In this document: piece after piece, positions 1,369 through 43,210 of the stretch
Position numbering within the stretch: the first letter of the stretch is position 1
Layout: the number at the start of each line of letters is the position of its first letter
Source: a virus
Taxonomy: Duplodnaviria > Heunggongvirae > Uroviricota > Caudoviricetes
Strand: one strand, 5' to 3'
DNA: 54,083 nt
Virus record (IMG/VR): IMGVR_UViG_2534682338_000012
Location: 1-54,083 of that record
Notes under the pieces: generated by a model
The model's database searches: none
Told to the model about the DNA's origin: nothing
What the model saw: only the letters and a program-made list of their open reading frames with translations
Position numbers and translations under genes: made by a program

Positions 1369-1444
1369 GCCGATATAGCTCAGTTGGTAGAGCAGCGCAT
1401 TCGTAATGCGAAGGTCGTAGGTTCGACTCCTATTATCGGCACCA
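1369..1444 (+). tRNA. thrW: tRNA-Thr (anticodon CGU)
   Basis: 76-nt cloverleaf-compatible sequence GCCGATATAGCTCAGTTGGTAGAGCAGCGCATTCGTAATGCG...TTCGACTCC...GGCACCA with CGT anticodon and 3' CCA; coordinates approximate to 1-2 nt. Confidence 0.9.
1399..1444. repeat. attL core (3' 46 bp of tRNA-Thr)
   Basis: Exact repeat of 41810-41855 by eye (ATTCGTAATGCGAAGGTCGTAGGTTCGACTCCTATTATCGGCACCA). Confidence 0.7.
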
Positions 1445-1458
1445 TTTAAATCAATAAG

Positions 1459-2622
1459 TTACACATCATTAGTACCTTCCTTATTTTTTGACTGGGACAA
1501 ATTTGGGACCGATGGGTTCAGGATCGAGTCTATTTGCCGTGCGTGTTCGGTAAGGTGATTAGGTGCAAGGTGAGCATATCGACGAACCATTTCGATAGAC
1601 TCCCAGCCTCCCATTTCCTGTAACACTGACAACGGGACTCCGGCTTGAACCAGCCAACTTGCCCAGGTGTGTCTCAAGTCGTGAAATCTGAAATCATCAA
1701 TACCAGCCCGTCTCAGCGCCGCTTTCCAGGCTGTGTTTGCGTCATACCGCATCTTCCTTACTGTTGGCGCTTTCGTTCCGTCTGGTTTGGTACAGCTTTC
1801 CTTGTACACAAATACCCAACGGTGATGATTCCCGATTTGTTTTTTCAATACGCGACATGCAGTATCATTCAGCGCAACGCCAATTGCGCGGTTTGATTTA
1901 CTCTCTTCCGGGTTTATCCATGCCACCCGGCGCTGCATATCTATTTGTTGCCATTCAAGGTTGATGATGTTCGAGCGTCTTAAACCTGTTGCCAGTGCAA
2001 ATTCAACAACAGACTTTAATGGCTCCGGACATTCATCAATCAGCCTTTGTGCTTCATGGGGCTCCAGCCAGCGGATCCGTTTATTCTTTGGTTGAGGCAC
2101 TTTAATAATTGGTGCCTTATCCAGCATTTTCCATTCACGCTCTGCGGCTCTTAGTAGGGCCTTTATAAATGAAAGATGCGTAGCCTTCGTTGCAACGGAC
2201 GCTGGTTTTGGCGTGTATTCTGGAACAGGTTTCCCTTTTTTTCTGCATGCTTCTGCCCTGAGTCTCCAGTTTTCCTCATGACGCCGGTTCGTCATTTTCT
2301 GCATTGCTGAATAAATTTTTGATTCAGTAATGTCTCTTAGTTGCATTCCTGCGAAATGTTGAAGCCAGAATCCGATCCGGCTTTTGTCATCGTCCAGTGA
2401 TTTTTTATGTGCTTTCTCTTCAAGCCACCTGACACACGCTTCCTCGAACGTTATATCAGGTATTTCACCAAGTTTGCTGACCCGCCATGCTTCAGCCTTT
2501 AGCTTGTCATGGAGTTCTGTCGCCTGCCTTTTGTCCTTTGTTCCAAGAGACTGTTTAAATCTTTTACCGTTCGGCAATGTGAAACTGGCGTACCATATTT
2601 CACCTCTGCGGAAGAGTGACAT
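1459..2622 (-). CDS. int: tyrosine integrase, P22 Int-like
   Basis: 387 aa, [33 protein letters not shown]... with C-terminal [10 protein letters not shown]...VRRYAH catalytic region; adjacent to tRNA attachment site. Confidence 0.95.
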
Positions 2623-2849
2623 TTTCTTTCCTCTGTTATGCCATCACCCGCGCTCACCTGGACAGTATGCAGCGGAGACTGAAGCGCCGCAATGCAGGCT
2701 TGTCGTGTTGTGAGGTAAGGAGATTTATTCTTAGTGGGATCTTTGCGTGTTGCCTGAAGACGCCCTGTGCGTATCCAGTTAATGGCAGTCGGTCTGGATA
2801 TCTTGAGAAAATGACAGGCCTCATCGAGTGTGAGGCTGTATGGCTCCAT
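2499..2849 (-). CDS. xis: excisionase (Xis)
   Basis: Internal Met start ([31 protein letters not shown]...) giving ~116 aa, overlaps int 5' end as in P22; helix-turn-helix like. Confidence 0.7.
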
Positions 2850-3154
2850 TATTTCACCTCTTGCTGTGACATTGTTGAAAAATGGATACCAGCTCGTTGC
2901 TGCCAGACGATCCAACCGAGAGTCATATCCCATGCCATGTATTCGTTATCGCCGTTTTTTGCTCTCCGACGATCTACTAAGTCACCGAAACGCTTTTCCA
3001 TGAATAATTCATAAGCTTCGCGTTCATCTGGTTCTACTTCCAGAGATAGGAGTGCGATTTCATAAGCACGGCGCTCAATATCGTCTCGCACGTCAAGGCT
3101 GCTGATACGCTCTTTAATTTCTTTAATCAGTTCTTTGTCGGTAAAAGTGGTCAT
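2849..3154 (-). CDS. hypothetical early-left operon protein
   Basis: 101-aa ORF with GGAGG RBS, stop/start overlap with flanking genes (translational coupling). Confidence 0.5.
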   Translation of the reverse strand: MTTFTDKELIKEIKERISSLDVRDDIERRAYEIALLSLEVEPDEREAYELFMEKRFGDLVDRRRAKNGDNEYMAWDMTLGWIVWQQRAGIHFSTMSQQEVK

Positions 3155-4043: not shown

Positions 4044-4170
4044 TTTGTTCTCCACGTATATGCGCTGCACCGCGCTGAATTCTGGTAAAAAGAATCCCTC
4101 ACCATCCGGCGATTATTGAGTAAATTACGTTTCCATAAATGCCCCCGCAGGGGCATTTGCAGTAATGAAA

Positions 4171-6739: not shown

Positions 6740-7414
6740 TTAGGCTTTGATTTTGTATCTTCTTGGTTTTCCTGAGAAAATCACTGTACCAATTATAGAG
6801 CAATTACCGTTGATCTTAATGTAAGGCTCAGGCCAGTTTGGGTTTAACGCTTTGAGATAACGCTGTGTCCCATCTTCTATTAACCTTTTGAAGGTGGTTT
6901 CACCTGTATCGTGCATCAATGCAATAACGTCGTCACCGTGGCAGGCAGGTACTTCAGGATCGACAAAAATCATGTCTCCCGGGCGGTACTCATCAATCAT
7001 TGAATCACCTATCACCCGCAAGATATAAGTCATTTCCCCACAGGGTACAGGGCAGGGATACGTTTCTGCTGTGCTCAAATCAACCTCAGAATATCCAACT
7101 TCTTTCCATGCTCCGGCCTGTACCCATGATATGACAGGGACTAATGTGATTTGTTTATTAGTGATTGAAACATCAGGTTTTTTTGTGATGTTCGTTGTCT
7201 GGTGTTCTTGATCGAGCCATCCGACAGGTAGGTCGAAACATTTTTCGATGTGTCGTGCCATGCTGTCACCGATATTTTTAGTAGCACCATCTCCCATAAA
7301 CCTGCTGGTCTGGGTTGGCTCGCGATCAATCATAGTGGCAAAGGAAGAATTCCCGCCAACACCATCTCTCAGTTTTCTGGCGTTAGACCGCCGGATGTCA
7401 TGGATTGTTTTCAT
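6740..7414 (-). CDS. cI: CI-like prophage repressor with LexA-like S24 peptidase domain
   Basis: 224 aa; N-terminal HTH region, C-terminal GDSM serine and downstream Lys typical of S24 autocleavage domain; divergent from cro. Confidence 0.9.
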   Translation of the reverse strand: MKTIHDIRRSNARKLRDGVGGNSSFATMIDREPTQTSRFMGDGATKNIGDSMARHIEKCFDLPVGWLDQEHQTTNITKKPDVSITNKQITLVPVISWVQAGAWKEVGYSEVDLSTAETYPCPVPCGEMTYILRVIGDSMIDEYRPGDMIFVDPEVPACHGDDVIALMHDTGETTFKRLIEDGTQRYLKALNPNWPEPYIKINGNCSIIGTVIFSGKPRRYKIKA

Positions 7415-8300: not shown

Positions 8301-8655
8301 ACAGTTTAACAACACACTACCGTCGCTCGCAACTGATTGCGCTTCCTGTACCGGGTGGAAAAGCGAAGGTGGAGTATTGCTATGCAGTAAATGTACCAGG
8401 TGACAGGGAAATTGTAACCCACAGCTTTGCAGAGTGGGCTGTGGGTGATTTCAACCGGCAGAAGGAGACAGTCCTTTGCGACAAGTTAACCGCTGGTTCA
8501 AAGATCACTACGGAGTGCCCGTCAGAGTCATTCGTTGGGAGCCGGAAACACAACGTGTTATCTACCTCCGCGAAGGCTATGAGCATGAGTGCTTCAGCCC
8601 GCTCGAACAGTTTCGTCGTAAATTCAGGGAAATAGAGGTCGGTCATGAGCACTAA
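8297..8655 (+). pseudogene. hypothetical gene apparently split by a frameshift
   Basis: Frame-2 ORF 8297-8635 has a start but a serine-rich low-complexity tail; frame-1 (8449-8655) encodes protein-like ...[50 protein letters not shown]... without a start and ends overlapping the next gene's ATG. Confidence 0.35.
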
Positions 8656-9586
8656 ATTAACCGGCTATGTATGGGATGGTTGCGCTGCATCAGGCATGAA
8701 ATTATCCAGCGTGGCAATTATGGCCCGCCTGGCTGATTTCAGTAATGACGAAGGTGTGTGCTGGCCATCAATTGAAACCATTGCCCGCCAGATTGGCGCG
8801 GGAATGAGTACCGTCAGAACGGCTATCGCACGGCTGGAAGCAGAAGGCTGGTTAACGCGTAAGGCGCGTCGCCAGGGTAACCGCAATGCGTCGAATGTTT
8901 ATCAGCTTAACGTTGCGAAGCTTCAGGCAGCGGCATTTTCTCAACTGTCAGATTCTGACCCGTCAAAATCTGACGCATCAAAATCTGACCCGTCAAAATT
9001 TGATGCGTCGAAATCTGGCAAAAAAGCGGGTTTTCACCCGTCAGAATCTGGCGGGGATCCGTCAGTAAAATCAAAACATGATCCGTCAGATAAAAAAACT
9101 TCTCGTCCGGACGCTTCGCAACCGGACACGCAGACGGCTGAACAGGAGTTTTTAACTCGCCATCCTGATGCGGTTGTATTCAGCCCTAAAAAGCGCCAGT
9201 GGGGAACGCAGGATGATTTGACCTGCGCACAGTGGCTCTGGAAAAAAATCATCGCCCTGTACGAGCAGGCCGCCGAATGTGACGGCGAGGTGGTTCGTCC
9301 CAAAGAACCGAACTGGACAGCCTGGGCAAACGAAATTCGCCTGATGTGTGTGCAGGATGGTCGTACTCATAAACAAATCTGCGAGATGTACAGCCGCGTC
9401 AGTCGCGATCCGTTCTGGTGCCGTAACGTGCTCAGCCCGTCGAAGCTGCGGGAAAAATGGGATGAGCTTTCCCTGCGCTTATCGCCGTCCGTCAGCACGT
9501 ACACCGAAAAACGCGAAGACCCGTACTTCAAAGCCAGTTACGACAACGTGGACTACAGCCAGATCCCGGCAGGATTCAGGGGGTGA
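8645..9586 (+). CDS. replication initiation protein (lambda O-like)
   Basis: 313 aa; N-terminal HTH-like region followed by repeat-encoded DPSKSDASKSDPSKFDASKS linker that coincides with DNA iterons. Confidence 0.8.
   Translation: MSTKLTGYVWDGCAASGMKLSSVAIMARLADFSNDEGVCWPSIETIARQIGAGMSTVRTAIARLEAEGWLTRKARRQGNRNASNVYQLNVAKLQAAAFSQLSDSDPSKSDASKSDPSKFDASKSGKKAGFHPSESGGDPSVKSKHDPSDKKTSRPDASQPDTQTAEQEFLTRHPDAVVFSPKKRQWGTQDDLTCAQWLWKKIIALYEQAAECDGEVVRPKEPNWTAWANEIRLMCVQDGRTHKQICEMYSRVSRDPFWCRNVLSPSKLREKWDELSLRLSPSVSTYTEKREDPYFKASYDNVDYSQIPAGFRG
8945..9100. repeat. origin iterons inside the O-like gene
   Basis: About 8 imperfect direct repeats of CCGTCA(A/G)AATCTGAC-type units followed by an A-rich tract. 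Confidence 0.6.
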
Positions 9587-14232: not shown

Positions 14233-15018
14233 ATGTATGTTTTTGAGTTAATCAAGCCAGGCAGTAATCTTAAGTTTGAAAACAGAGAGTTAGAATGGAC
14301 GTTTAATAACTTATTATCCCATTTAGAAACTGCATTTTATGATGCTAATGTAGCATTAAATTTATTCGAACAGGAAAGAACTAAGAATAACAGTAAATTC
14401 GATAATATTTCTCAGACATGGCAAGCTGATGTACAGAAACGACAAGCACTGGAAATGCTGGTTCGTAAAGAGTTTGGTTATCAACCTTATGAATATTCAG
14501 AACAGGTTTTTTCAGAGGTCGAGCTACGTCTAAAAAGAGAAAAATGGAATAACGGTGAATATCCGTTGGCTCATCAACACAGATTGATCTTCTTACATGC
14601 AAAATCATTTCTCTACGCTTTGGATGCTATTGATAAATTTTTAAAGGTAATTTCAAAAGAAAATGGCGCGCCAGAGAACATTAAAAAATTGCATGAACAG
14701 CTTTCTAAAGACTTTCCGGATTTAAGAAAGGTAAGGAATTCAGCTCAACACATGGAAGACAGAGTTCGTGGGCTTGGTGCAGAGAAAGAACCAAAGCCAA
14801 TAAAACTCAAACCTGTAAATAATATTCATGTTGTTGCACCTCAGGGGGCATTGATGTTGAATAACTTATTCGGAACTAAATTTGGGTGCACTATGGCTGA
14901 TGGCTATTATGGTGAAGTAGATATTTCGACAGAGTCTTTGGCAAAGTTGCAAAATTTAATCCAAAAAGTTTTTAATTCCTTCAGTTGGGAAGGACCAAAG
15001 CAACACCTTCCCCGATAA
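14233..15018 (+). CDS. hypothetical moron protein (261 aa) at the Q-holin locus
   Basis: AT-rich ORF with own downstream terminator; no recognisable domain. Confidence 0.6.
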   Translation: MYVFELIKPGSNLKFENRELEWTFNNLLSHLETAFYDANVALNLFEQERTKNNSKFDNISQTWQADVQKRQALEMLVRKEFGYQPYEYSEQVFSEVELRLKREKWNNGEYPLAHQHRLIFLHAKSFLYALDAIDKFLKVISKENGAPENIKKLHEQLSKDFPDLRKVRNSAQHMEDRVRGLGAEKEPKPIKLKPVNNIHVVAPQGALMLNNLFGTKFGCTMADGYYGEVDISTESLAKLQNLIQKVFNSFSWEGPKQHLPR

Positions 15019-27390: not shown

Positions 27391-27659
27391 TGAAAGAGCT
27401 TGAGTTAAAGAAACCGATTACTGCTCATGGCGAGACACTCTCCGTACTGGAGTTTGATGAACCCACCGGGAAGGATGTCCGCGAGCTGGGGTATCCCTAC
27501 CAGATGAATCAGGATGAGTCAGTCAGACTTCTGGCGCATGTGGTGTCGAAATACATTGTGCGGCTGGCGAAAGTGCCGCAAAGCTCTGTCGACCAGATGT
27601 CTCCGGCAGACCTGAATGCAGCGGCGTGGCTTGTGGCTGGTTTTTTCCTCCAGGCCTGA
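27390..27659 (+). CDS. tail assembly chaperone
   Basis: 89 aa between tube and tape measure; ends just after slippery heptamer. Confidence 0.6.
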   Translation: MKELELKKPITAHGETLSVLEFDEPTGKDVRELGYPYQMNQDESVRLLAHVVSKYIVRLAKVPQSSVDQMSPADLNAAAWLVAGFFLQA

Positions 27660-27814
27660 CGGCTGAATACCTCACTGATCGCTTCTTTGACTGCGCCAGC
27701 TACTGGCGCATTAATCCTTTCGAATTGCTGAATATGCCGATCAGTGAAATTCCCTTGCTGGTCAGTCAGGCAAACAGGATAGAGCAGGAGAAACGCACAC
27801 ATGGCGGAATTTGA
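27626..27814 (+). CDS. tail assembly chaperone -1 frameshift extension
   Basis: -1 frame ORF overlapping chaperone 3' end; T TTT TTC slippery heptamer at ~27641-27647. Confidence 0.4.
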   Translation: MACGWFFPPGLTAEYLTDRFFDCASYWRINPFELLNMPISEIPLLVSQANRIEQEKRTHGGI

Positions 27815-29636: not shown

Positions 29637-29659
29637 TGAAAAATTAATCTGTTAATGAG

Positions 29660-29685
29660 TCCCACTCCGGTGGGATTTTTTATGT
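29660..29685 (+). terminator. putative terminator after tape measure gene
   Basis: CCCAC-TCCG-GTGGG hairpin followed by ATTTTTTAT. Confidence 0.4.
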
Positions 29686-29696
29686 ACGGAGTTTAT

Positions 29697-31025
29697 ATGA
29701 CGTGGAAAGACAGACTTCAGGACGCGTCATTTCGCGGTGTGCCGTTTAAGGTTGAAGAAGAAAGTGCGGGAACCGGTCGTCGTGTGGAAACGCACGAATA
29801 CCCGAACCGCGACAAACCCTATACCGAAGACCTGGGGAAAATCACTTTCCGCCCGTCCATCACAGCTTATGTGGTGGGAGATGACTGCTTTGACCAGCGC
29901 GATCGCCTGATTGACGCGCTGAATAAACCCGGTCCCGGCACGCTTGTCCATCCGACTTACGGTGAGCTGAAAGTCTGTGTTGACGGGGAAGTTCGGGTCA
30001 GCACATCGAAGAGTGAAGGGCGTATTGTCCGCTTTGACCTGAAGTTTGTCGAAGCGGGAGAACTCTCTTACCCCACTTCAGGTGCGGCGACGGCGCAGAC
30101 GCTGATGTCATCCTGTTCTGCACTGGATGACTGCATCAGTGACAGCTTCAGTGGTTTCAGTATCGATGGCGTGGCAGATTTTGTGCAGAACGACGTCGTC
30201 GGTAATGCCAGCACAATGCTTGGGTATGTTTCTGATGCGATGAAAGTGGTGGATTCTGCCGTATCGGATGCCGCCAGGCTGTTGCAGGGGGATATCTCGG
30301 TACTTCTGCCGCCACCATCGTCAGGCAAAAATTTCGTTGAGCAGGTGCAGAAAATGTGGCGTACCGGGAAACGCCTTTATGGTAACGCCAGCGACCTGGT
30401 CACCATGATCAAAACGCTTTCCGGTGTCAGCCTCGGCAGCGATCTGCAACCGCGCGGCGTCTGGAAAACGGACAGTAAAACTACCGCCACGGCGACGCAG
30501 CAGCGTAACGTGGTTGCCAGCACCCTTCGTACGACCGCAATCAGCGAAGCGGCGTATGCCGTCACACGATTGCCTGCGCCCACAACTTCCGCGGTGATGC
30601 AGAATGCCACAGTAGGGCAGTCAACAACACCCGCGCAGAGCACCGGCTGGCCTTCTGTCACGCATCCGGCACTGAACAATGCACCGGCGGTGAAAAACAC
30701 GGTTGACCTGCCAACGTGGGAAGAACTGACCGACATTCGCGACACACTGAATACGGCAATTGATAAGGAGTTGTCCCGTACAACCAGTGATGCGCTGTTT
30801 CTGGCGCTGCGCCGGGTGAAAGCAGATCTGAATGCGGATATCAACACGCGCCTTGAACAGTCTGCACGGATCATTCAGCGCACGCCGGATGAGGTTTTAC
30901 CCGCGCTGGTGCTGGCGGCGACCTGGTTTGATAACGCGGCGCGTGACGCGGACATTATCCGGCGTAATGCCATTACGCATCCCGGCTTTGTGCCGGTGAT
31001 CCCTCTGAAGGTGCCAGTGCAATGA
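29697..31025 (+). CDS. DNA circularisation protein (Mu gpN-like)
   Basis: MTWKDRLQDASFRGVPFKVEEE... N-terminus typical of Mu N family; start chosen at ATG with GGAG RBS. Confidence 0.75.
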   Translation: MTWKDRLQDASFRGVPFKVEEESAGTGRRVETHEYPNRDKPYTEDLGKITFRPSITAYVVGDDCFDQRDRLIDALNKPGPGTLVHPTYGELKVCVDGEVRVSTSKSEGRIVRFDLKFVEAGELSYPTSGAATAQTLMSSCSALDDCISDSFSGFSIDGVADFVQNDVVGNASTMLGYVSDAMKVVDSAVSDAARLLQGDISVLLPPPSSGKNFVEQVQKMWRTGKRLYGNASDLVTMIKTLSGVSLGSDLQPRGVWKTDSKTTATATQQRNVVASTLRTTAISEAAYAVTRLPAPTTSAVMQNATVGQSTTPAQSTGWPSVTHPALNNAPAVKNTVDLPTWEELTDIRDTLNTAIDKELSRTTSDALFLALRRVKADLNADINTRLEQSARIIQRTPDEVLPALVLAATWFDNAARDADIIRRNAITHPGFVPVIPLKVPVQ

Positions 31026-32101
31026 ACGACAATGTCACGCTACGGGTAAATGGCCGGGAGTGGAATGGCTGGACATCGGTGCGCATCGGTGCCGGTATTG
31101 AACGGCTGGCGCGGGATTTCAGTGTGGAGATCACTCGCCAATGGCCGGGAGATGAGGGTATCACCACGCTTCAGCCGCGCATTAAAAACGGTTCAAAAGT
31201 GGAAGTGCTGATTGGTGATGAGCTGGTGATCACCGGCTGGGTGGAGGCGACTCCCGTTCGTTACGATGCCCGTTCGGTCAGCACCGGTATTGCCGGACGT
31301 AGTCTGACGGCTGACCTGATTGACTGTGCAGCCGAACCGACACAGTTTAACGGACGCTCGCTGGTGCAGATTGCGCAGGCGCTTGCTGCGCCTTTCGGCA
31401 TTGAGGTTGTGAACAGCGGTGCGCCGTCGGGTGTTATTCCTGATGTTCAGCCTGATCACGGTGAAACGGTGATTGAGGTAATCAACAAAATACTCGGTCA
31501 GCAGCAGGCGCTGGCTTACGACGACCCGCACGGCAGGCTGGTGATTGGCGGTATTGGCTCAACGCGGGCACATACCGCGCTGGTACTTGGGGAAAACATC
31601 CTTTCCTGTGATACGGAGAAGAGTATCCGGGAGCGGTTTTCTGTTTACCAGGTGGCGGGGCAGCGTGCCGGAAACGACGATGATTTCGGTGAGGCCACCA
31701 CCACCGCGCTGCGGGCCCGCACAGAGGACGCATTTATTGCCCGTTACCGTCCGATGTATATCAGGCAGACAGGGCAGGCCACGGGGGCAGGCTGTATTGC
31801 GCGTGCTGACTTTGAAGCCCGAAAACGGGCGGCGCGGACGGATGAAACCACCTATGTGGTGCAGGGCTGGCGACAGGGTAACGGTACGCTGTGGCAGCCC
31901 AACCAGCGGGTGATTGTCTTCGATCCGGTCTGTGGTTTCGACAATACCGAACTGCTTGTCTCGGAAGTCACGTTTACTCAGGACCAGAACGGCACCCTGA
32001 CGGAAATCCGTGTCGGCCCGCCTGATGCTTATCTGCCTGAACCCGAAGCCCCCGGCGCGCGGAAAAAGAAAAAAGCCAGAGTACAGGAGGACCCGTTCTG
32101 A
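31022..32101 (+). CDS. baseplate hub protein (Mu gpP-like)
   Basis: 359 aa, canonical position after N. Confidence 0.7.
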   Translation: MNDNVTLRVNGREWNGWTSVRIGAGIERLARDFSVEITRQWPGDEGITTLQPRIKNGSKVEVLIGDELVITGWVEATPVRYDARSVSTGIAGRSLTADLIDCAAEPTQFNGRSLVQIAQALAAPFGIEVVNSGAPSGVIPDVQPDHGETVIEVINKILGQQQALAYDDPHGRLVIGGIGSTRAHTALVLGENILSCDTEKSIRERFSVYQVAGQRAGNDDDFGEATTTALRARTEDAFIARYRPMYIRQTGQATGAGCIARADFEARKRAARTDETTYVVQGWRQGNGTLWQPNQRVIVFDPVCGFDNTELLVSEVTFTQDQNGTLTEIRVGPPDAYLPEPEAPGARKKKKARVQEDPF

Positions 32102-32649
32102 TGAGGACGATTGAAGCCATGCAGCGACAACTTCTCGGCCTGATTGGGCGGGCAGTGGTGAAAAGCATCAGTGCCGCCACGAAATGTCAGACCGTGGATG
32201 TGTCCCTGATTGCCGGTGAACCCAAAGCCGGGGTTGAACATCTTGAACCCTACGGTTTTACCGCAAGGGCAAACAGCGGTGCGGAAGCGGTGGTGTTGTT
32301 TCCGGATGGCGACCGTTCTCATGCGGTGGTTGTTACGGTGTCGGACCGGCGCTACCGCCTGAAAGGGCTGCAAACGGGTGAGGTGGCTGTCTATGACGAT
32401 CAGGGGCAGTCTGTGACGCTGACCCGGGAGGGGATCGTGGTGGACGGTGCAGGGAAAACGATCACGTTTCGCAATGCACCTGAAGCACGTTTTGAAATGG
32501 ATCTGGAAGTGACCGGACAGGTGAAAGACCTGTGCGACTCCGGCGGCACCACCATGTCAGCGATGCGGCTTGCCTATAACGGGCATCGTCACAGAGAGAA
32601 CGGTCAGGGCAGTAACACCGACAAACCTGATAAAGCGATGGAGGCATGA
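32101..32649 (+). CDS. baseplate assembly protein V / spike
   Basis: 182 aa, canonical position. Confidence 0.7.
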   Translation: MRTIEAMQRQLLGLIGRAVVKSISAATKCQTVDVSLIAGEPKAGVEHLEPYGFTARANSGAEAVVLFPDGDRSHAVVVTVSDRRYRLKGLQTGEVAVYDDQGQSVTLTREGIVVDGAGKTITFRNAPEARFEMDLEVTGQVKDLCDSGGTTMSAMRLAYNGHRHRENGQGSNTDKPDKAMEA

Positions 32650-33073
32650 TGGAACTGTGGCTGACGGTGAACGGTAAACGCACCTGCGCCAGCGCACCGC
32701 TGGATCCGCTGACCCGCGCCGTGGTGATTTCCCTGTTCACCTGGCGGCGGGCGGAGCCTGATGACAATGCCGACGTCCCGATGGGATGGTGGGGGATACC
32801 TGGCCTGCGGTACAGAATGACCGTTACGGCTCCCGACTGTGGTTGCTTCAGCGCAGCAAACTGACCAATCAGCTGGTGCAGACGGTAAGGGGATATATCC
32901 GCGAATGCCTGCAATGGATGACTGATGACGGCGTGGTGTCCCGTATTGATCTGGATATCCGCCGCACCGGGATTAATGAGCTGGGTAACAGTATCACCCT
33001 CTGGCGTCGTGATGGACCAGTAATGATTTCTTTTGATGATCTGTGGAGTGCGATAACGCATGGCGGACAGTGA
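32646..33073 (+). pseudogene. baseplate protein (Mu gp46-like) interrupted by frameshift in G-run
   Basis: ORFs 32646-32864 and 32786-33073 overlap in different frames; junction at GGTGGGGGAT where one extra G would give continuous ...DVPMGWWGDTWPAVQNDRY... Confidence 0.5.
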
Positions 33074-34118
33074 ATTTCAGCGCCCGACGCTGGCAGAAAA
33101 TATCAGTATGCTCCGTAACGATTTATTCGCCAGGCTGGACGTCAGCGACACGCTCCGGCGCATGGATGAAGACGTGCGGGCAAAGGTGTATGCGGCGGCG
33201 CTGCATACGGTCTACGGTTACATCGATTATCTGGCAATGAATATGCTGCCTGACCTGTGCGATGAGTCCTGGCTGGCGCGACATGCTGCGATGAAACGGT
33301 GTCCGCGCAAGGGGGCCACGGTTGCCAGCGGGTATATGCGCTGGGAAGGTGTCAGCGATGGCCTGAAGGTGACTGCCGGGAGTGTTATTCAGCGCGATGA
33401 CCTGGTGCAGTACACGACAACTGACGATGCAATCAGCTCCGGTGGTGTCCTGCGCGTGCCGATCGCCTGCTCAAGTGCAGGTGCGGTCGGTAACGCTGAC
33501 GACGGTACGGCATTAATCCTGGTCACGCCGGTGAATGGTCTGCCGTCTTCCGGTGTGGCTGACACCCTGACAGGCGGATTTGATACTGAAGAGCTGGAAA
33601 CGTGGCGCGCCCGCGTCATTGAGCGGTATTACTGGACGCCGCAGGGCGGGGCTGACGGGGACTATGTCGTCTGGGCTAAAGAAGTGCCTGGCATTACCCG
33701 CGCATGGACATACCGACACTGGATGGGAACGGGGACTGTCGGTGTGATGATTGCCAGCAGTGACCTGATTAATCCCATTCCGGAAGAATCAACGGAAACG
33801 GCGGCAAGACAACATATCGGGCCACTGGCCCCGGTGGCAGGCTCTGATTTGTATGTGTTCAGGCCGGTGGCACATACGGTGGATTTTCATATCCGTGTGA
33901 CGCCGGACACACCGGAAATACGGGCTGCCATCACCGCGGAGTTGCGTTCGTTCCTGCTGCGTGATGGTTATCCGCAGGGAGAACTGAAGGTGTCACGTAT
34001 CAGTGAAGCGATTTCCGGTGCGAACGGGGAATACAGCCATCAGTTGCTTGCACCGGCGGACAATATCACCATTGCGAAAAATGAACTGGCGGTTCTGGGG
34101 GCGATTTCATGGACGTGA
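33060..34118 (+). CDS. baseplate J-like protein
   Basis: 352 aa, canonical position. Confidence 0.75.
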
Positions 34119-34693
34119 CAAACGATGATTACATCCGTCTGTTGTCAGCACTGTTGCCGCCCGGTCCGGCGTGGTCAGCCAGCGATCCGGCGATTGCCGG
34201 TGCGGCACCGTCATTAACCCGTGTTCATCAGCGTGCGGATGCCCTGATGCAGGAGCTGGATCCGCGCACCACCACCGAACTGATAAACCGCTGGGAGCGT
34301 CTGTGCGGCCTGCCGGATGAATGTATTCCGGCAGGGACGCAGACCCTTCGCCAGCGTCAGCAACGGCTGGATGCGAAGGTTAACCTGGCGGGCGGCATCA
34401 ATGAGGATTTTTACCTTGCACAGCTTGCTGCCCTGGGCAGACCAGACGCCACCATCACGCGATACGACAAAAGCACGTTCACCTGCTCATCTGCCTGTAT
34501 TGACGCGGTGAATGCGCCGGAATGGCGGTATTACTGGCAGGTCAACATGCCAGCCGCCACCAACACCACCTGGATGACATGTGGCGATCCCTGTGATTCC
34601 GCGCTGCGCTTCTGGGGGGACACCGTTGTCGAGTGTGTTCTTAACAAACTCTGCCCGTCGCATACCTATGTGATTTTTAAATATCCGGAGTAA
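34109..34693 (+). CDS. tail protein (DUF2313/YmfQ-like)
   Basis: 194 aa, precedes tail fibre as in e14/Mu-type tails. Confidence 0.65.
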
Positions 34694-34696
34694 TCC

Positions 34697-35344
34697 ATGC
34701 ATCGTATAGACACGAAAACCGCGCAGAAGGATAAGTTCGGCGCGGGTAAGAACGGTTTTACCCGTGGTAACCCCCAGACCGGCACGCCTGCCACCGATCT
34801 GGATGATGACTACTTTGACATGTTGCAGGAGGAGCTTTGCAGCGTTGTGGAGGCATCCGGTGCCAGCCTGGAGAAGGGGCGGCATGACCAGCTGCTTACC
34901 GCGCTTCGTGCGCTGCTGTTAAGCCGCAAGAATCCGTTTGGCGATATCAAATCGGATGGCACGGTGAAAACAGCTCTCGAAAACCTTGGTTTGGGAGAAG
35001 CGGCAAAGAGGAATGTGGGGACAGGAGAAAATCAGGTACCGGATATGAACAGCTTTGGTAACTCATTGACCGCCAATGGATACCAGAAATTACCTGGGGG
35101 GATGATTATTCAATGGGGGAGTTTTTCTGTCTCACCAACCGGAGGAAGTGTTGGAACAGTTGATATAACATTACCTGTAGCTTTCCCTGCTGCTTGTCGT
35201 TCGGTAAACGCTCTTATTTCAACTAATGATCCTTCTGCCCGTTCTGTGGGCTTTGATATTGGAAGTACCAACAGAACTAAAATCAGATTTACTTACACTT
35301 CTGCTACAACAAATTCAATTTACTGGATGGCTGTGGGGTATTAA
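34697..35344 (+). CDS. tail fibre protein (constant N-terminus fused to variable segment A)
   Basis: [22 protein letters not shown]... conserved fibre N-terminus; crossover site lies inside the gene. Confidence 0.75.
34974..34999. repeat. left inversion crossover site (gix/pix-like)
   Basis: CTCTCGAAAACCTTGGTTTGGGAGAA; inverted copy at ~36832-36857. Confidence 0.55.
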
Positions 35345-35346
35345 CT

Positions 35347-35778
35347 ATGGAAAAGACATATTATTTTAATCCCTCTGATTCGGGATTTTATATTTCACCA
35401 GATAGCCAAACCATTCCTGAGAACGCTACGAAAATAAACTTTACTATTTATTCTGAGTTCGCAGGAGTTGCATGGCCTGATGGTAAAATACTTGGTTCAG
35501 ATAAAAATGGTTTTCCAGCATGGCAGGATGCGCCACCACTTACAAGCGAAGAATTAATCTCAATCGCTGAATCAAATAAACAGCGATTAGTTAATCAGGC
35601 CAACGAATACATGAACAGTAAACAATGGCCTGGTAAAGCGGCGATTGGTCGTCTGAAAGGTGAGGAACTGGCGCAATATAATTTGTGGCTGGATTATCTG
35701 GACGCACTGGAACTGGTCGATACTTCCAGTGCGCCAGATATTGAATGGCCTACTCCTCCGGCAGTTCAGGCCAGATGA
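35347..35778 (+). CDS. tail fibre assembly protein (for variant A)
   Basis: 143 aa, C-terminal LWLDYLDALELVDTSSAPDIEWPTPP typical of Tfa chaperones. Confidence 0.7.
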   Translation: MEKTYYFNPSDSGFYISPDSQTIPENATKINFTIYSEFAGVAWPDGKILGSDKNGFPAWQDAPPLTSEELISIAESNKQRLVNQANEYMNSKQWPGKAAIGRLKGEELAQYNLWLDYLDALELVDTSSAPDIEWPTPPAVQAR

Positions 35779-36352
35779 CATCCGGCGCGGTACTGGTATC
35801 TGTTGCCGTCACCGCGTCAATGTAATCCAGCACAGTGTTAAGTCGGGTGGTCTCTGCCTGCATCAGCTTCCGCCCGGCCTGCAATTTCAGTTGAATCAGA
35901 CTAATGGAAGCCATTGCAGTATCAATCAGTGACTGACGTTGTGCTTCTGCCGCGTCTACTGCGGCGCTATGCTGTGTCTCAGTATCCGTCACCCATTTCT
36001 CACCATCCCATTTATCGTATGGCGTTAACGGGGCGATAGTGGTTGTTTTTTCGGGGTAATCACCCGGAGTTGTGATTTCTTTGGCGTCTCCCGTTTCGGT
36101 GTTATAGACGATTTCACCGCGATGGTCTGGTACATATTCCCATGAGTTAAAATCTGCAGAGCGGCAGATTGCATAACCAGCTTTGTAGGTGCCTGGAGCA
36201 TCTAAACAGGAATAAGCCGGAATGCCGACACCAACAGCAAGATATTCAGTTGAAGCTGAAATATACTCCCGACTCATGACGTCAAAGTTATAAACAGTAA
36301 TTTCTCCTGCCATAGTGGCAATTAATTCACTGTTTAATTCTGCGTTATTCAT
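35750..36352 (-). CDS. tail fibre assembly protein (for variant B)
   Basis: 200 aa, C-terminal LNTVLDYIDAVTATDTSTAPDVIWPELP Tfa signature, opposite strand within invertible segment. Confidence 0.7.
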   Translation of the reverse strand: MNNAELNSELIATMAGEITVYNFDVMSREYISASTEYLAVGVGIPAYSCLDAPGTYKAGYAICRSADFNSWEYVPDHRGEIVYNTETGDAKEITTPGDYPEKTTTIAPLTPYDKWDGEKWVTDTETQHSAAVDAAEAQRQSLIDTAMASISLIQLKLQAGRKLMQAETTRLNTVLDYIDAVTATDTSTAPDVIWPELPEE

Positions 36353-36856
36353 TATGCAGCCCTCACAATATAGTTAAAAGCGACATTTCGTGGGCGTGTT
36401 TCATTCGCACCTGCAGGTTTAGTCGTTGCCGCAACAACACTACCCTCTGTAATAGCCGGGTTGGGAATTGGGTAATTATCGAAGTCAATGGCTGGAGACA
36501 GGGGCGTGATTTGTTTTAAAATCGTGGTGCCTGTAAAACTTCCCAGAGTCTGGTCGTTAGTTCGTGAAGTCCAGACTCCCCAATAGTGGTTATGACTGAC
36601 AATCGCACCGTCCTGAAGCGTTAATAATCCCCTTCCGTTATCCACTCCACGTCCGTCATCCCAGCCACGAATAAACTCACCGCGTAAATCAGGTAATTTA
36701 TTTGTCGGATAAGCCTTTGCCAGTTCCGGGTATTCTTCAGCAGAAAAAGCTGCTCCGTTGCATTTCAGCCAGCCTGTTGGCGGAGTGGCTGAAGGCCACG
36801 GAACAGGCACACCAACGGGTAATGCTGAGCCTTCTCCCAAACCAACGTTTATGAAA
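36352..36856 (-). CDS. alternative tail fibre C-terminal segment (variant B, currently unfused)
   Basis: Minus-strand ORF ending at crossover site; would fuse to fibre N-terminus after inversion. Confidence 0.6.
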
Positions 36857-36857
36857 A
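36832..36857. repeat. right inversion crossover site
   Basis: TTCTCCCAAACCAACGTTTATGAAAA, inverted relative to left site (shared TTCTCCCAAACCAA core). Confidence 0.55.
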
Positions 36858-36911
36858 TGCAGAAATAACGAGCAAATGGCATCATTCCTGCTTTTGTCAG
36901 GGAGATCTACC

Positions 36912-37466
36912 ATGCTTATTGGCTATGTACGTGTGTCAACAAATGACCAGAACACAGATCTACAACGTAATGCGCTGAACTGTGCAGGATGCGAGCTGAT
37001 TTTTGAAGACAAGATAAGCGGTACAAAGTCCGAAAGGCCGGGACTGAAAAAACTGCTCAGGACATTATCGGCAGGTGATACGCTGGTGGTCTGGAAACTG
37101 GACCGACTGGGGCGCAGTATGCGGCATCTTGTCGTGCTGGTGGAGGAGTTGCGCGAACGAGGCATCAACTTTCGTAGTCTGACGGATTCAATTGATACCA
37201 GTACCCCAATGGGGCGCTTTTTCTTTCATGTGATGGGTGCCCTGGCTGAAATGGAGCGTGAACTGATTGTTGAAAGAACAAAAGCTGGACTGGAAGCTGC
37301 TCGCGCACAGGGACGAATTGGTGGACGTCGTCCCAAACTTGCACCAGAACAATGGGCGCAGGCCGGGCGATTAATTGCATCAGGCGTTCCTCGCCAGAAG
37401 GTGGCGATCATCTATGATGTTGGTATATCGACACTGTATAAGAAGTTTCCGGTCGGAGATAAATGA
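36912..37466 (+). CDS. pin: serine DNA invertase (Pin/Gin/Hin family)
   Basis: MLIGYVRVSTNDQNTDLQ... catalytic Ser in YVRVST, C-terminal HTH; immediately right of invertible segment. Confidence 0.9.
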   Translation: MLIGYVRVSTNDQNTDLQRNALNCAGCELIFEDKISGTKSERPGLKKLLRTLSAGDTLVVWKLDRLGRSMRHLVVLVEELRERGINFRSLTDSIDTSTPMGRFFFHVMGALAEMERELIVERTKAGLEAARAQGRIGGRRPKLAPEQWAQAGRLIASGVPRQKVAIIYDVGISTLYKKFPVGDK

Positions 37467-37572: not shown

Positions 37573-38394
<822 letters not shown>

Positions 38395-38926
38395 CTAACC
38401 CTTTGAATTTACATAGCGCAAAAAGATACCTTTCCTCATAATGTGAGCTAATTTTATGTTTCGTTTGATGATCGGGTCGGTCTCGAAACCCGTAGCCACG
38501 TCATATGCAAGAACGTGCTACGACTGGCTGGTGAACTTCCGATAGTGCGAGTATTGAATGATTTCCAACTGTTATCGATTTTGCGTATTTTTAGCATGAG
38601 AGGATTCGCACCACCTCCCACCGACCATCTATGACAGTATGCCACTATCTATAGGACTGCTTTGTGCCAGCAGCGGACGGTATGTTTGTTAATTGGCGGA
38701 TTTTCTTGAGTAAATCAATAGGATAGGTGAAAAATTAATCAAAAGTTTATGGCCCTACTACCCATCAAACTGATAGAGCCTCTCCCTGGATGGACGACAA
38801 AATCAGATATTGGAAAGTCAATAATTAATACAAGCACCAACATTTCTTGAAAAGGTTATTTATAAAATGAAATAATTTTTAGCCATGTTATAGTGATGTA
38901 TTAACTTCAGATAAAGAGATTATAGG

Positions 38927-40363
38927 ATGAATGCTAAAATTTCATGTCCAATTGATGGGTATATCATAACAGATTTCATAGGAGACGGAGGGAACGGAGA
39001 TGTGTATCTTGTAACTTCAAGTTCTGGCGAGGAAGCATTCGCTTTAAAAATACTAAGAAATGTACAAGAATCAACTTATAATAGATTCAAGGTAGAAGTT
39101 AATTTCTTGAAAGATAATAAAGTAGATGGGGTAATGCCTTTGCTTGATTTTTACCTTCCAGATAATGCAAAAAAAGAACAAGCTTGGTATCTTATGCCAT
39201 TGGCTGAAAGCTTTAAAGAAAGTGTAAAGCAAAAAGATCCATTATCAATCATCTCTGAATTCATTCATCTCACTCAAACCATTATAGAACTCCATGACCA
39301 AAACATATCTCACCGGGATATAAAGCCAGATAATCTTCTATATTTGAATGGCAGGATATTTTTAGCGGACTTTGGATTGGTAAAATATCCTGAAAGAATC
39401 GAATTAACACCCGATATGCGAGACGTTGGCGCAAAATTCACAATGGCCCCAGAAATGAGACGGATAGCAAATCGTGCTGATGGGCTCCCGGCAGACATTT
39501 ACTCTCTGGCAAAATCAGTATGGATGTCTCTGACTAAAGACTATCTTGGTTTTGATGGTCAGTACAGCACAAAATCTAATATCGGATTATCAAACTACAT
39601 AAAAGAACTATATCTACCGCCCTTAGATGACCTATTAGTGCGCGCAACAGATAACGATCCGTATCAGCGACCAACTGCTGCGGAGTTTAAGACAGAACTT
39701 GAAAATTGGATAAAAATTAATAATGATTTCATCCAGCGTAATTTAACTGAATGGTTCGAAATCCAAAACCTACTATTCCCATACAGCACACCGAATAGTG
39801 TAGAGTGGACAAATAATGATGACATAATAAACATACTCAATTTAATAGCTGGAAGGGAGTCTCTAAATCACATGTTTTATCCTTCCGGTGGGGGAAGCGA
39901 TTTGATTTATGTCGAACCAGCCTCAGAAAAAGGATTTATCGCGCTTATAGTCTGTGAACGATGCGCTGAAATTTTAAAGCCCAAAAAACTTTCATTTGAA
40001 TCATTTGGTCATGATCCCGAATGGAATTATTTTCGTCTTGAATGTGAAGTAATCGAACCAATGAAAATTTCGGGTCCCGTTACTAGTTCAACGATGGATG
40101 AATACATGGTTGAAATTACGCCTGGAAATTACATACCTCCAGATTGCTGGGAAATAAATGAGTATCAAGGTAAACCTCTACCTGAAACCGCTAGAATTGT
40201 CAGCAGGTATATAAAAGGTAGTTTTGTATTTTTCTGCAAGTCATCAACTTATAACAGAATAAGCCAGACGTATAATGCTTGGCAGAATGTGGGGGAAAAT
40301 GAATTCAGAAAGCTAATCGCAAAATTTGCTCAGTATGCTTCTGCCCGAAGAACCATTAAATAA
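38927..40363 (+). CDS. Hanks-type Ser/Thr protein kinase with C-terminal domain of unknown function
   Basis: Gly loop IGDGGNGDVY, catalytic Lys (AFALK), HRDIKPDNLL catalytic loop, DFG (LADFGL), APE (MAPEMRR). Confidence 0.8.
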   Translation: MNAKISCPIDGYIITDFIGDGGNGDVYLVTSSSGEEAFALKILRNVQESTYNRFKVEVNFLKDNKVDGVMPLLDFYLPDNAKKEQAWYLMPLAESFKESVKQKDPLSIISEFIHLTQTIIELHDQNISHRDIKPDNLLYLNGRIFLADFGLVKYPERIELTPDMRDVGAKFTMAPEMRRIANRADGLPADIYSLAKSVWMSLTKDYLGFDGQYSTKSNIGLSNYIKELYLPPLDDLLVRATDNDPYQRPTAAEFKTELENWIKINNDFIQRNLTEWFEIQNLLFPYSTPNSVEWTNNDDIINILNLIAGRESLNHMFYPSGGGSDLIYVEPASEKGFIALIVCERCAEILKPKKLSFESFGHDPEWNYFRLECEVIEPMKISGPVTSSTMDEYMVEITPGNYIPPDCWEINEYQGKPLPETARIVSRYIKGSFVFFCKSSTYNRISQTYNAWQNVGENEFRKLIAKFAQYASARRTIK

Positions 40364-40719
40364 TATTCCAACTACTGTGGCAGCGTATTTAATACTTAAT
40401 TGGTCGCTACAGTGTACAAGGAAAGTGTGTTATATAGCGTTCATATTCTGATAAGCATATACAAATCAGGTGTTTTTCGGCTATTATCTTTTGGTATTCC
40501 GTTTTGCCTGCAGCACACTGACACATCTGCTTCTCGCTTACAGCCGCCGAGGTAAGAGAGCACGTTACCGCGTCGGTGGACTTACTGACCTATCAAAATA
40601 ACCGCTTAATGCCAGAAGCGGGTATTCAGAGTATCCTGCAACCATATGGTCATTACACAAAGTGGATAGCAAATGTTTCAGTTTTTTGGCTCAGGATTGA
40701 GCTGGAGTGAGGATAAATA

Positions 40720-41337
40720 ATGAAAAGTAGCCTTGAACAAGCTTTCCAAGAAGCAGCACACGCAGCAGATCGTGCAGTCAGCGGTGCGATGCTGAAGTAT
40801 TCTAATGGGTTGGTCACGGATGAAGACGACATAACAGGGGTACTGATCGGCCGGTTGGATGCTGTGTTTTCCGAAGAAATTGGTGGTGTAACATGGTCTT
40901 CATCCATTCTAAGGCACCGTAAGGGGGTAGCAGCAGAAGAAAAGAAGGTCGGTGCTGACATGCTGCTCCATGTCTCAATCTCAACACCAGAGCTCACCTA
41001 TTCAAAGGGGGTTTTGATTCAGTCAAAGAGAGTTGATGAAGGTATTGCAATGACAGCACAAGGTCACAAAGAATTGCTGGGACAGTGCGACAAAATGCTA
41101 AATATTACCCCGGCTTCGTTTGTTTTTACCTATACGAAGTCAGGGATGCGCTGCGCTTCCGCAACGAAGATTGTTGGAACAAGTAGCCGAATACTTAACG
41201 ATTCGTGCAACCTGACCTCTTATCGGTTCTTCCTGGAACTGTTCCGATGCACAATTGGAGATCGCAACATTACATCGGCCAAGTTTGATGATCTTCGGAT
41301 ACCTCAAGGCATTGCCATCAAGGGAACACTGGAGTAA
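40720..41337 (+). CDS. hypothetical protein (205 aa)
   Basis: ATG with GAGTGAGG RBS downstream of kinase; no recognisable domain. Confidence 0.5.
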   Translation: MKSSLEQAFQEAAHAADRAVSGAMLKYSNGLVTDEDDITGVLIGRLDAVFSEEIGGVTWSSSILRHRKGVAAEEKKVGADMLLHVSISTPELTYSKGVLIQSKRVDEGIAMTAQGHKELLGQCDKMLNITPASFVFTYTKSGMRCASATKIVGTSSRILNDSCNLTSYRFFLELFRCTIGDRNITSAKFDDLRIPQGIAIKGTLE

Positions 41338-41809
41338 GTGGTGTCTCTTCCTAGGCTTTGAGAGTGCATAGACACACAGCCTAAAGGCGGTATAACCCCA
41401 TTGGGTTAAATTATGTCTATTTAACCACATCATGATACGAAGATACCTTCCAAAATGTTGCCATGTACTCATCTGTTGTTGCCTGGCTGGTGACGTGTCT
41501 GGGTGTTAGCACCGTGCTCTCTCATTGTCTGAGTCTGGGCCAATCCACGCTCATAGCAGGCATTCACTTCAGTCATGGCGGAAAGGTATGCATGCTGGGT
41601 GGGGAAAGTGTGAAAGAAAAGAAGACTGCTGCGTCGTTTGTCGTCACGTTTATCTTCATTGGCTATGCAAGTCGTAATACAAGGTGGGACAAAACTGAGA
41701 CACATAAGGCCTCGCAATGGCTTGCAAGGCTTTACATGTTTTGATGTGGTGGGACGTGTGAGCGCAGTGTTGATGGGGTAATGCTTTGAATTAGAAGCGG
41801 ATTCTTATA

Positions 41810-41855
41810 ATTCGTAATGCGAAGGTCGTAGGTTCGACTCCTATTATCGGCACCA
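41810..41855. repeat. attR of prophage / attL of P4-like element (partial tRNA-Thr 3' end)
   Basis: 46-bp copy of tRNA 3' end lacking the 5' half. Confidence 0.7.
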
Positions 41856-42019
41856 TCACCTAGTTTTCCCAAGTCAACCCACATCAACAAAATCATTTAA
41901 AAACATATATATTACGTTATTTTCATACGTTTGAGGTCAACCCTTGTCTCTTGAAATCAACACGCGGTTGGGGGCACAATCAGGGGCATGTTCTGTTCGG
42001 TCTAGGAAATGTGCCCCCA

Positions 42020-43210
42020 ATGATGCTGAATGCCCGCAAGGTTGAAGCTGCGAAAGGAAAAGAGAAGAGCTACAAGCTGTTTGATGGAGGTGGCCTATAC
42101 CTTCAGGTCGAACCTAATGGCTCGCGTTACTGGCGTATGAAATACCGTTTTGCTGGTAAAGAGAAACGATTGTCCTTTGGTGTTTATCCAACAGTCACAC
42201 TTGCTGATGCCAGACAAAAACGAGAAGACGCGAAGAAACTACTCGCAGCAGGTGAAGATCCCGGCGAAGTCAAAAAAGCCAAAAAGCAGGCTTTAAATGC
42301 AGCGATTGAGACACTTAACCCATTCAGAGAAGTGGCGTTAGAGTGGCACAAAATGAAATCACCCAAATGGTCTGAGGGCTATGCTTCCGACATCATTGAG
42401 GCATTCGAGAAAGACATTTTCCCGCATATTGGGCACAGACCTATAGCTGATATTCAGCCCCTTGAACTGCTTGAAGTTCTGAGGTTGATAGAAGCTCGAG
42501 GCGCTATGGAGAAAGCGAAGAAAGTCCGTCAGCGATGCGGTGAAGTTTTTCGCTATGCCATCGTAACGGGTAGGGCAATCTACAATCCGGCACCGGATCT
42601 TGCCAGTGCGATGCAAGGACATGAAGCAGTCCACTATCCATTCCTCAAAGCCAACGAACTACCGGAGTTCTTTAATGCCCTTAATTCTTATTCAGGAAGT
42701 CCAATTGTATTGTTGGGGGCGCATTTACTTATCCTGACAGGTCTACGAACTGGAGAACTACGAGCAGGTGAGTGGCGAGAGGTGGATTTTGATAATGCGG
42801 TGTGGGAGATCCCAAAAGAACGTATGAAAATGCGTAGGAGCCATATTGTCCCGTTGTCAAAACAAGCATTATCCCATCTCAAAAGTTTGAAAGAACTAAC
42901 TGGGAACTACCCGCTGATGTTCCCTGGACGCAACGATCCTAGCAAATTTATGAGTGAAGCAAGCATTAATCAGGTGTTTAAACGTATTGGATATGCAGGG
43001 CGTGTTACGGGGCATGGTTTCAGGCATACGATGAGTACAATCCTACATGAGAAAGGATTTAACAGCGCTTGGATTGAAACCCAGCTTGCTCATTCGGACA
43101 AAAACTCTATTCGTGGAATTTATAACCATGCCCAATATCTCGAAGGGAGAAGAGAAATGATGCAATGGTATGCTAATTATTTATCTGAGCTAATTGGTAC
43201 TCATAAATGA
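42020..43210 (+). CDS. P4-type tyrosine integrase
   Basis: N-terminal LNARKVEAAKGKEKSYKLFDGGGLYLQV (DUF4102-like arm-binding domain), C-terminal HGFRHT...Y catalytic region; track start is TTG, ATG chosen. Confidence 0.85.
   Translation: MMLNARKVEAAKGKEKSYKLFDGGGLYLQVEPNGSRYWRMKYRFAGKEKRLSFGVYPTVTLADARQKREDAKKLLAAGEDPGEVKKAKKQALNAAIETLNPFREVALEWHKMKSPKWSEGYASDIIEAFEKDIFPHIGHRPIADIQPLELLEVLRLIEARGAMEKAKKVRQRCGEVFRYAIVTGRAIYNPAPDLASAMQGHEAVHYPFLKANELPEFFNALNSYSGSPIVLLGAHLLILTGLRTGELRAGEWREVDFDNAVWEIPKERMKMRRSHIVPLSKQALSHLKSLKELTGNYPLMFPGRNDPSKFMSEASINQVFKRIGYAGRVTGHGFRHTMSTILHEKGFNSAWIETQLAHSDKNSIRGIYNHAQYLEGRREMMQWYANYLSELIGTHK

Follow-up and report, generated by a model that had tools for sequence, protein, structure and literature searches.

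An SfV-like prophage and a P4-like satellite in tandem at the thrW tRNA gene of Escherichia coli

When a tRNA gene is followed by two integrase genes, is it occupied by one mobile element or by two, and, if one of the two resembles a satellite of phage P4, is its neighbor the helper? We addressed this question for the thrW gene on the IMG/VR record IMGVR_UViG_2534682338_000012, the whole 54,083 nt of which were analyzed and are hereafter called the window. The window opens inside E. coli proA (1-1254), and thrW begins 114 nt past the end of proA as the only tRNA gene found in it by ARAGORN and Rfam, a tRNA-Thr(CGT). An earlier reading of the sequence (the original prediction) had described at 1369-43210 a prophage and a P4-like satellite that lay in tandem, shared an att core, could excise alone or together, and placed the satellite beside a potential helper phage. 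The analysis described below supports, with high confidence, the view that two independent integrative elements form a tandem array in thrW, which arose by two sequential site-specific integrations, while a helper role of the neighboring prophage is very unlikely.

The intact tRNA-Thr gene is followed by a P22-type integrase gene, the open reading frame (ORF) of which begins 14 nt beyond the tRNA, by a full prophage, and by a repeat of the tRNA 3' end, just as had been predicted. A repeat finder reported one long exact direct repeat in the window, and its length is 47 nt, comprising the 3' 46 nt of the tRNA and one additional T. The first base of the repeat corresponds to tRNA position 31, and the block takes in the entire anticodon loop of thrW. 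A 32-nt sub-pattern of the repeat matched the window twice and had no match in 100 shuffles. The two copies are separated by 40,364 bp, and the attP of phage P22 holds the identical 46 nt of the thrW 3' end. The P22-type Int of the phage would recombine within this 47-nt segment, displacing a 47-nt fragment to the right end of the prophage, and the prophage attL would regenerate the 3' 46 nt of thrW.

The second element is headed by an integrase with the domain architecture Arm-DNA-bind_3 + Phage_int_M + Phage_integrase, which showed 43% identity to P4 Int over 410 aa. The longest integrase ORF runs from a TTG at 41951, and the start annotated in the relatives VE-T9 and VG12A2 is the ATG at 42020. 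This ATG overlaps an arm repeat, which is exactly the P4 arrangement, and lies 163 nt beyond the second 47-nt copy, in agreement with the predicted P4-type integrase about 160 bp after the repeat. The arm-repeat motif of the satellite is that of the six annotated P4 attP arm repeats, and two further copies directly precede the right-hand att site in VE-T9, VG12A2, and a third relative, QDFD216. The P4-family Int of the satellite would recognize these TTGGGGGCA arm repeats and recombine within the last 19 nt of the tRNA.

The satellite identity block is 19 nt long, begins at tRNA position 59 in the T-loop, and runs to the 3' end. Judged from these extents of identity, the att cores are nested, with two crossover sublocations, one at the anticodon loop for the prophage and the other at the T-loop/3' end for the satellite. 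Since the 47-nt fragment includes the 19-nt segment, the middle site would act as the prophage attR and the satellite attL at once. Anticodon-loop and T-loop/junction positions are also distinguished as separate integration subsites in Islander (PMC4383910). The shared att core proposed originally thus needs to be divided: 19 nt are indeed common to the outermost sites, but the prophage uses 47 nt and the satellite 19 nt at different sublocations.

Other genomes carry the two elements separately. In M8, the prophage occupies thrW alone, and its 47-nt attR is followed by the native flank TAAAATCAAAGAG. In VG12A2, the satellite occupies thrW alone in the layout of full tRNA, satellite, 19-nt attR CTCCTATTATCGGCACCAT, and then the native flank as in M8, and differs from that in the window by three mismatches, one 1-nt indel, and an IS1. 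The occurrence of each element alone at thrW bears out the tandem of two integrative elements. VE-T9 carries the satellite at 99.6% identity in the reverse order relative to the prophage, and QDFD216 shows the same prophage-then-satellite order as the window with a DRT3 hotspot and a slightly imperfect third core copy, after which the native flank resumes. With regard to the extent of the array, the predicted start was correct and the predicted end was short, as 43210 merely closes the satellite integrase gene and the element reaches 54083 and about 190 nt past it. The third copy of the att core that was expected downstream is present in VG12A2 and VE-T9, where the 19-nt attR CTCCTATTATCGGCACCAT lies 175 nt past the equivalent of the window end, and is unreadable within the window itself. 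Beyond the window, we infer CTCCTATTATCGGCACCAT at about +175 to +193, followed by TAAAATCAAAGAGTTACCCC and then the yagP/paoD side.

The nesting of the cores explains which element orders are possible. For the order in the window, either the phage would have entered a satellite carrier at the full tRNA, or the satellite would have entered a lysogen at the displaced fragment, and the choice between these two sequences of events is beyond what the sequence decides. The order in VE-T9 (thrW, satellite, 19 nt, prophage) would be reached only by entry of the satellite into the attL of a lysogen, because the 19-nt fragment does not offer the anticodon loop to the phage integrase. As for the way out, each element would excise alone with its own Int and directionality factor, namely, Xis for the phage and an AlpA/Vis-like candidate for the satellite. 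Such independent excision is plausible because the cores of both elements are perfect and each element comes with an integrase of its own, with arm sites, and with a candidate directionality factor. In lambda-type excisive complexes, cognate arms are needed on both partners. By analogy, the two elements are not expected to excise jointly: the outermost sites bear the arms of two different integrases, and a left site with the phage P' arm would have to pair with a right site with the satellite P arm. At about 52.8 kb, the joint circle would also be larger than the genome of SfV (37 kb), P2 (33.6 kb), or P4 (11.6 kb). Excision of either element alone therefore stands from the original prediction, and excision of both together does not.

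Whether the neighboring prophage could be the helper was examined at the level of proteins, DNA, and genome frequency. The portal, terminase, scaffold, capsid, and tail proteins of P2 (including Q, P, O, N, M, and L) had no match in the window at E<=0.01, and the only P2 protein that matched was Ogr, on the delta-like gene of the satellite itself. The prophage has an HK97-type head (PF05065, protease, and HNH/P27 terminase) and a Mu-type tail, and satellite and prophage have no DNA match longer than 15 nt, leaving no common sequence able to serve as a shared cos. Among 5426 complete E. coli genomes, the satellite att/int module was found in 83, of which 17 had the same prophage-satellite junction, a lower bound as prophage right ends are variable, and one (VE-T9) had the reverse order, again a lower bound as the query contains a hotspot-specific arm. 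The junction of thrW with a P22-type int was present in 1280 of the 5426 genomes (24%). The tandem rate of 18/83 (22%) is close to this base rate, and adjacency is thus as frequent as predicted by independent use of the same tRNA. Without a P2 structural match, common DNA, or enriched adjacency, the neighbor is not a plausible helper, and the helper role envisaged in the original prediction was not upheld. As judged from its gene set, the satellite would depend on a P2-like helper at another location or arriving by infection.

A helper-satellite pair in cis, in which the satellite senses or exploits the induction of the SfV-like prophage through their linkage, must be weighed against these data. 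The two elements lie side by side in the same orientation at their junction, and this junction recurs in 17 genomes. The last prophage genes (40720-41337 and 41463-41744) are directed toward the satellite int with no plus-strand terminator called between, the only terminator-like stem-loops called in a terminator scan from the prophage end to the satellite int being those at 41697-41730 on the minus strand. Helper-embedded satellites are also known among phage-inducible chromosomal islands (PMC10111431). However, in addition to the lack of P2-type structural homologues in the prophage and the co-occurrence at the base rate, about 65 of the 83 satellite carriers are without such a neighbor, and Sid, Psu, and Delta fall into families of P4 proteins that act on P2; we consider a pair in cis very improbable. 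There is likewise only a very slim chance that the satellite belongs to a rearranged P4-like lineage (int-α-sid-psu-δ, no ε) open to non-P2 helpers, including the adjacent prophage in cis, a situation in which read-through from the prophage right-end genes into the satellite int/att on induction could be one route. If the satellite were switched on by its neighbor in this manner, the tandem would be a functional unit.

Two further accounts concern the mobility of the elements. One or both could be immobile remnants in a fixed genomic island, since the MC gene of the satellite hotspot is frameshifted, an ε homologue was not found, cos is not proven, and thrW of K-12 holds the decayed CP4-6 island within the same 47-nt repeat. 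We regard this as unlikely, because the att cores are perfect throughout, neither integrase is truncated, the directionality-factor candidates and arm repeats of both elements are present, and the structural and lysis ORFs of the prophage have the lengths of their references. Moreover, the satellite is >99.9% identical in an unrelated strain and occurs in both orders relative to the prophage, which indicates recent mobility. A two-integrase composite of about 53 kb that moves as one unit would fit the 19-nt identity of the outermost sites and the internal junction common to the 17 genomes. This candidate was rejected as extremely improbable, because the halves occur alone at thrW elsewhere and in both orders. 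The hotspots at this junction also vary (DRT3 versus ABC-3C), the outer sites bear arms of different integrases, and the size of such an element would exceed those of the phage and satellite genomes given above.

Several points weigh against the tandem of independent elements and against a P2-like helper, and they qualify the corresponding parts of the argument. The crossover positions are taken from extents of identity and not from mapped cleavage sites, and the third att copy is known from near-identical relatives, the attR being beyond the window. Dependence on a P2-like helper is argued solely from the homology of Sid, Psu, and Delta, in a gene order unlike that of P4. In addition, the cos of the satellite is a candidate only, the best tblastn match to ε in the window had E=6.7, and the P4 CI RNA was not found at the Rfam gathering threshold in the whole window or at E<=1 over 43.9-45.4 kb.

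Table 1. Positions of the attachment sites and genes of the thrW array in the window
Feature	Position	Strand	Basis or remark
thrW, intact tRNA-Thr(CGT)	1369-1444	+	ARAGORN; Rfam tRNA 71.8 bits; identical to K-12 thrW
Prophage attL core, 47 nt	1399-1445	+	Exact repeat; same 46 nt present in P22 attP
SfV/SfI-like temperate prophage, 40.4 kb	1446-41809		98-99% identical loci (PGAP annotation); nt identity to Sf phages
P22-type tyrosine integrase, 387 aa	1459-2622	-	89.7% aa identity to P22 Int over the full 387 aa; PF00589
Xis excisionase	2502-2849	-	87% aa identity to P22 Xis over 116 aa; HTH_17
cI-like repressor	6740-7414	-	
HNH + P27-type TerS + TerL	18339-20072		
Portal	20266-21507		
Major capsid protein	22150-23355		PF05065, HK97-type
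Mu-like contractile tail	25538-35778		
Pin invertase	36876-37466		
PD-T4-3 GIY-YIG protein	37573-38349	-	PADLOC PD-T4-3 E=1e-128; Pfam LEM-3_GIY-YIG
Ser/Thr protein kinase	38927-40363	+	mad6/PD-T4-6 model matches (PADLOC); Pfam Pkinase
Middle att site = prophage attR core (47 nt)	41810-41856	+	Exact repeat of 1399-1445; contains satellite attL core 41838-41856 (19 nt)
P4-type Int arm-binding repeats	41968-42018		TTGGGGGCACAA, degenerate copy, inverted TTGGGGGCACAT overlapping int start codon
P4-family integrase, 396 aa	42020-43210	+	PF13356 + PF22022 + PF00589; 43% identity to P4 Int
AlpA/Vis-like HTH protein, candidate excisionase/regulator	44157-44447	+	PF05930 E=4e-4; PHROG 66 E=1.6e-6
Icd-like small protein	44785-44961	+	54% identity over 46 aa to C-terminal part of P4 'cI/kil' ORF; PGAP name; PHROG 1743
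DUF5375 protein, P4 orf106 homologue	45626-46009	+	PF17345
α-type primase/replicase, 890 aa	46006-48678	+	Zn_Ribbon_Prim + Toprim_3 + DUF927; 38% identity to P4 α N-terminal 311 aa
Sid	49079-49822	+	phrog_6165 E=8e-93
Psu	49819-50370	+	PF07455 1e-44; phrog_6366 4e-70
Ogr/Delta zinc-finger activator	50376-50648	+	PF04606 1e-15; 47% identity to P2 Ogr
Candidate P2-type cos site	50826-50880	+	TGCATGAAAACC...AAGCGAAGCGGGCA|GGCGTGCGGGGCTGCCCGC; backbone/hotspot boundary
Defense hotspot, ABC-3C-type system	51178-54083	+	Pfam; PADLOC PDC-M68B
SMEK_N effector	51178-52137	+	
MC6-like middle gene, 83 aa, frameshifted	~52134-52384	+	A6 vs A7 indel relative to VG12A2
DUF2326 ABC ATPase	52368-54083	+	Window end = its stop codon

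The gene content of the prophage was read from loci of STEC005 and M8 that are 98-99% identical to it and carry a PGAP annotation. Listed there are int, xis, early genes of the yfdT/R/Q/P type, and genes for a LexA-family repressor and a Cro-like protein, the early region being lambdoid, as well as genes for a replication protein, Dam, RusA, the Q antiterminator, holin, endolysin, and spanins. Also listed are genes for HNH, P27-type TerS, TerL, portal, HK97 protease, major capsid protein, and connectors and for a Mu-like sheath, tube, tape measure, baseplate, and tail fibers with the Pin invertase. Every temperate-phage module is present between the repeats and the prophage is apparently intact, as the original prediction of a full prophage with a P22-type integrase had implied. 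Nucleotide identity to SfV, SfI, SfII, and SfIV is 96-98% over 58-67% of the prophage; with two E. coli myoviruses added to the Sf phages, the same identity extends over 58-77% of the query. As for a gtr cassette, P22 GtrA, GtrB, and GtrC gave no tblastn match at E<=1 in the window, and the slot that gtrABC occupies in SfV-type phages is filled by the cargo at 37573-40363.

Additional features of the prophage were observed. The att-proximal cargo region (37573-41744) also has two ORFs without a family match, which are the two last genes named above. Within the replication gene (8645-9586), a 15-nt unit (TCAAAATCTGACCCG-like) is present six times at 8933-9055, and such repeats are typical lambdoid origin iterons. 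Two inserts of low GC content (36-40%) at 14233-15018 and 16432-17295 stand on either side of the lysis cassette; one has no family match and the other encodes a DUF6236 protein that is absent from the closest relative, STEC005, and both are probably moron genes. An invertible tail-fiber segment (35750-37466) consists of minus-strand alternative fiber and assembly genes beside the Pin-type invertase. In at least 20 further clinical E. coli genomes (e.g., AR435, locus L019, 9001-14815), the prophage right arm and the 47-nt core are the same and are followed by about 36 nt resembling the satellite left arm and then by a different integrase island with HsdM, an ORC/CDC6-type ATPase, and other genes.

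The satellite is about 12.4 kb long, overrunning the window end by about 190 nt, and all genes downstream of its integrase are on the plus strand. By gene content, it is a P4-like satellite as predicted, with a P4-family Int, arm repeats, an α-type primase, and a hijack module of Sid, Psu, and Ogr/Delta (49079-50648); P4 Sid itself matches the same family, phrog_6165, with E=6e-116. No capsid, tail, or terminase gene was found in 41857-54083 by Pfam, PHROG, and the PGAP names of all ORFs. Downstream of the integrase gene, a 274-aa protein without a family match is encoded. The AlpA/Vis-like protein scored 20.6 bits against PF05930 (cut-off 21) and matched PHROG 66, described as 'excisionase and transcriptional regulator', while a BLAST search with P4 orf88 returned no match to it. 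Two small satellite proteins were matched by PHROG alone, and the ORFs in the position equivalent to P4 ε belong to PHROGs other than that of P4 ε. The gene order is int-alpA-like...α-sid-psu-δ-hotspot and does not match the P4 order int-hotspot-psu-δ-sid / alpA-ε-α. Besides the tRNA, the Rfam scans gave only a sub-threshold SymR-like match at 44719-44790 on the minus strand (31.6 bits versus a gathering score of 61, E=0.001). It sits in the regulatory intergenic region of the satellite, the place of the CI RNA in P4, and may be a chance match or an unrelated hairpin.

The defense hotspot is separated from the Ogr/Delta gene by a 530-nt spacer and has a low GC content of 30-33%. In its MC6-like gene, an indel near 52222 changes the A7 of VG12A2 to A6, which could be a homopolymer sequencing error, decay, or phase variation; in VE-T9, the split gene is that of the ATPase instead. 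The variable ends of both elements carry anti-phage genes.

The exact 19-nt cos of P2/P4 is absent from the window with up to 3 mismatches allowed. The candidate cos consists of a segment similar to the P2 cosR flank and a 19-mer starting with GGCG. Its co-linear similarity to the cosR flank is weak (score 29 versus a shuffle maximum of 27), and conservation in 12 satellites ends immediately after it. A BLAST search of the δ-hotspot intergenic region against a phage collection gave no match. Two scans of IMG/VR with the candidate cos returned nine contigs, eight of which are satellites, and no helper bearing the sequence was found in these scans. Four of these satellite contigs (L010, L013, L015, and L017) encode α, Sid, Psu, and δ proteins with 94-100% aa identity to those of the satellite, together with integrases that are only 39-41% identical to its integrase. 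From the sequences, this shows swapping of the integrase/att module on the same satellite backbone. With lengths of 19-51 kb, several of these 'viral contigs' probably merge a satellite with a neighboring element.

The two elements have well-characterized counterparts. The prophage resembles the Shigella/E. coli phages SfV, SfI, SfII, and SfIV in its int-xis-attP module, thrW target, 46-nt core, HK97-type head, and Mu-like tail. While the serotype-converting Sf phages have gtrABC, the prophage in the window has the PD-T4-3 nuclease and the kinase there, and additional genes of low GC content are found in it at 14.2-15.0 kb and 16.4-17.3 kb. The satellite resembles P4 in its Int family, arm-repeat motif, short T-loop-type core in a tRNA gene, and lack of virion genes, as well as in its α-type primase, DUF5375 (orf106), Icd/kil-like ORF, Sid, Psu, and Ogr/Delta. 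A variable defense hotspot beside the hijack operon is likewise shared with the P4 family, and the size of about 12.4 kb compares with 11.6 kb for P4. However, its proteins are only 30-43% identical to those of P4, and its target is thrW and not leuX. Its genes are co-directional in the order int-alpA-like...α-sid-psu-δ-hotspot-att, whereas P4 has int-hotspot-cos-psu-δ-sid divergent from the α operon. Its δ is a single 90-aa Ogr-like unit, and no ε homologue, exact P2/P4 cos, or CI RNA match was found in it. The family of P4-like satellites was described by Moura de Sousa & Rocha (PMC8628076) and Rousset et al. (PMC9122126), and such satellites, integrase swapping, and defense hotspots are already on record (PMC8628076, PMC9122126, PMC13586616). 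CP4-6 at thrW of K-12 occupies the same tRNA within an identical 47-nt flanking repeat. Its IntF is unrelated to either integrase in the window (sole match, 31% identity over 72 aa) and its content is different and decayed; kinship of the satellite to CP4-6 was therefore rejected.

What the array offers is a clean example of one tRNA gene that serves two integrase families through nested sublocations. It also illustrates that a satellite lying next to a prophage need not have that prophage as its helper. Programs that search for prophages or satellites can merge such arrays into a single 'prophage', and some satellite-bearing IMG/VR contigs appear to be merged in this way. The two elements also add anti-phage cargo, namely, PD-T4-3, the kinase, and the ABC-3C system. 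Current understanding is unchanged by the thrW array. Its architecture is ordinary, and tandem arrays have been well documented at tRNA genes including thrW. The Islander catalogue contains 125 tandem arrays at tRNA genes (PMC4383910). In such arrays, every member is equipped with an integrase and a displaced, co-oriented tRNA fragment of its own, and the array forms as one element after another integrates into the regenerated or displaced site. In our case, the integrase and fragment of the prophage are both in the window, as is the satellite integrase, and the satellite fragment was read in VG12A2, VE-T9, and QDFD216. A tandem at thrW was also obtained in the laboratory by sequential lysogeny with SfX and SfI (PMC3306764). 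While SfI and SfX are two phages that use the same att, the array described here combines two integrase families, two sublocations, and displaced fragments of 47 and 19 nt.

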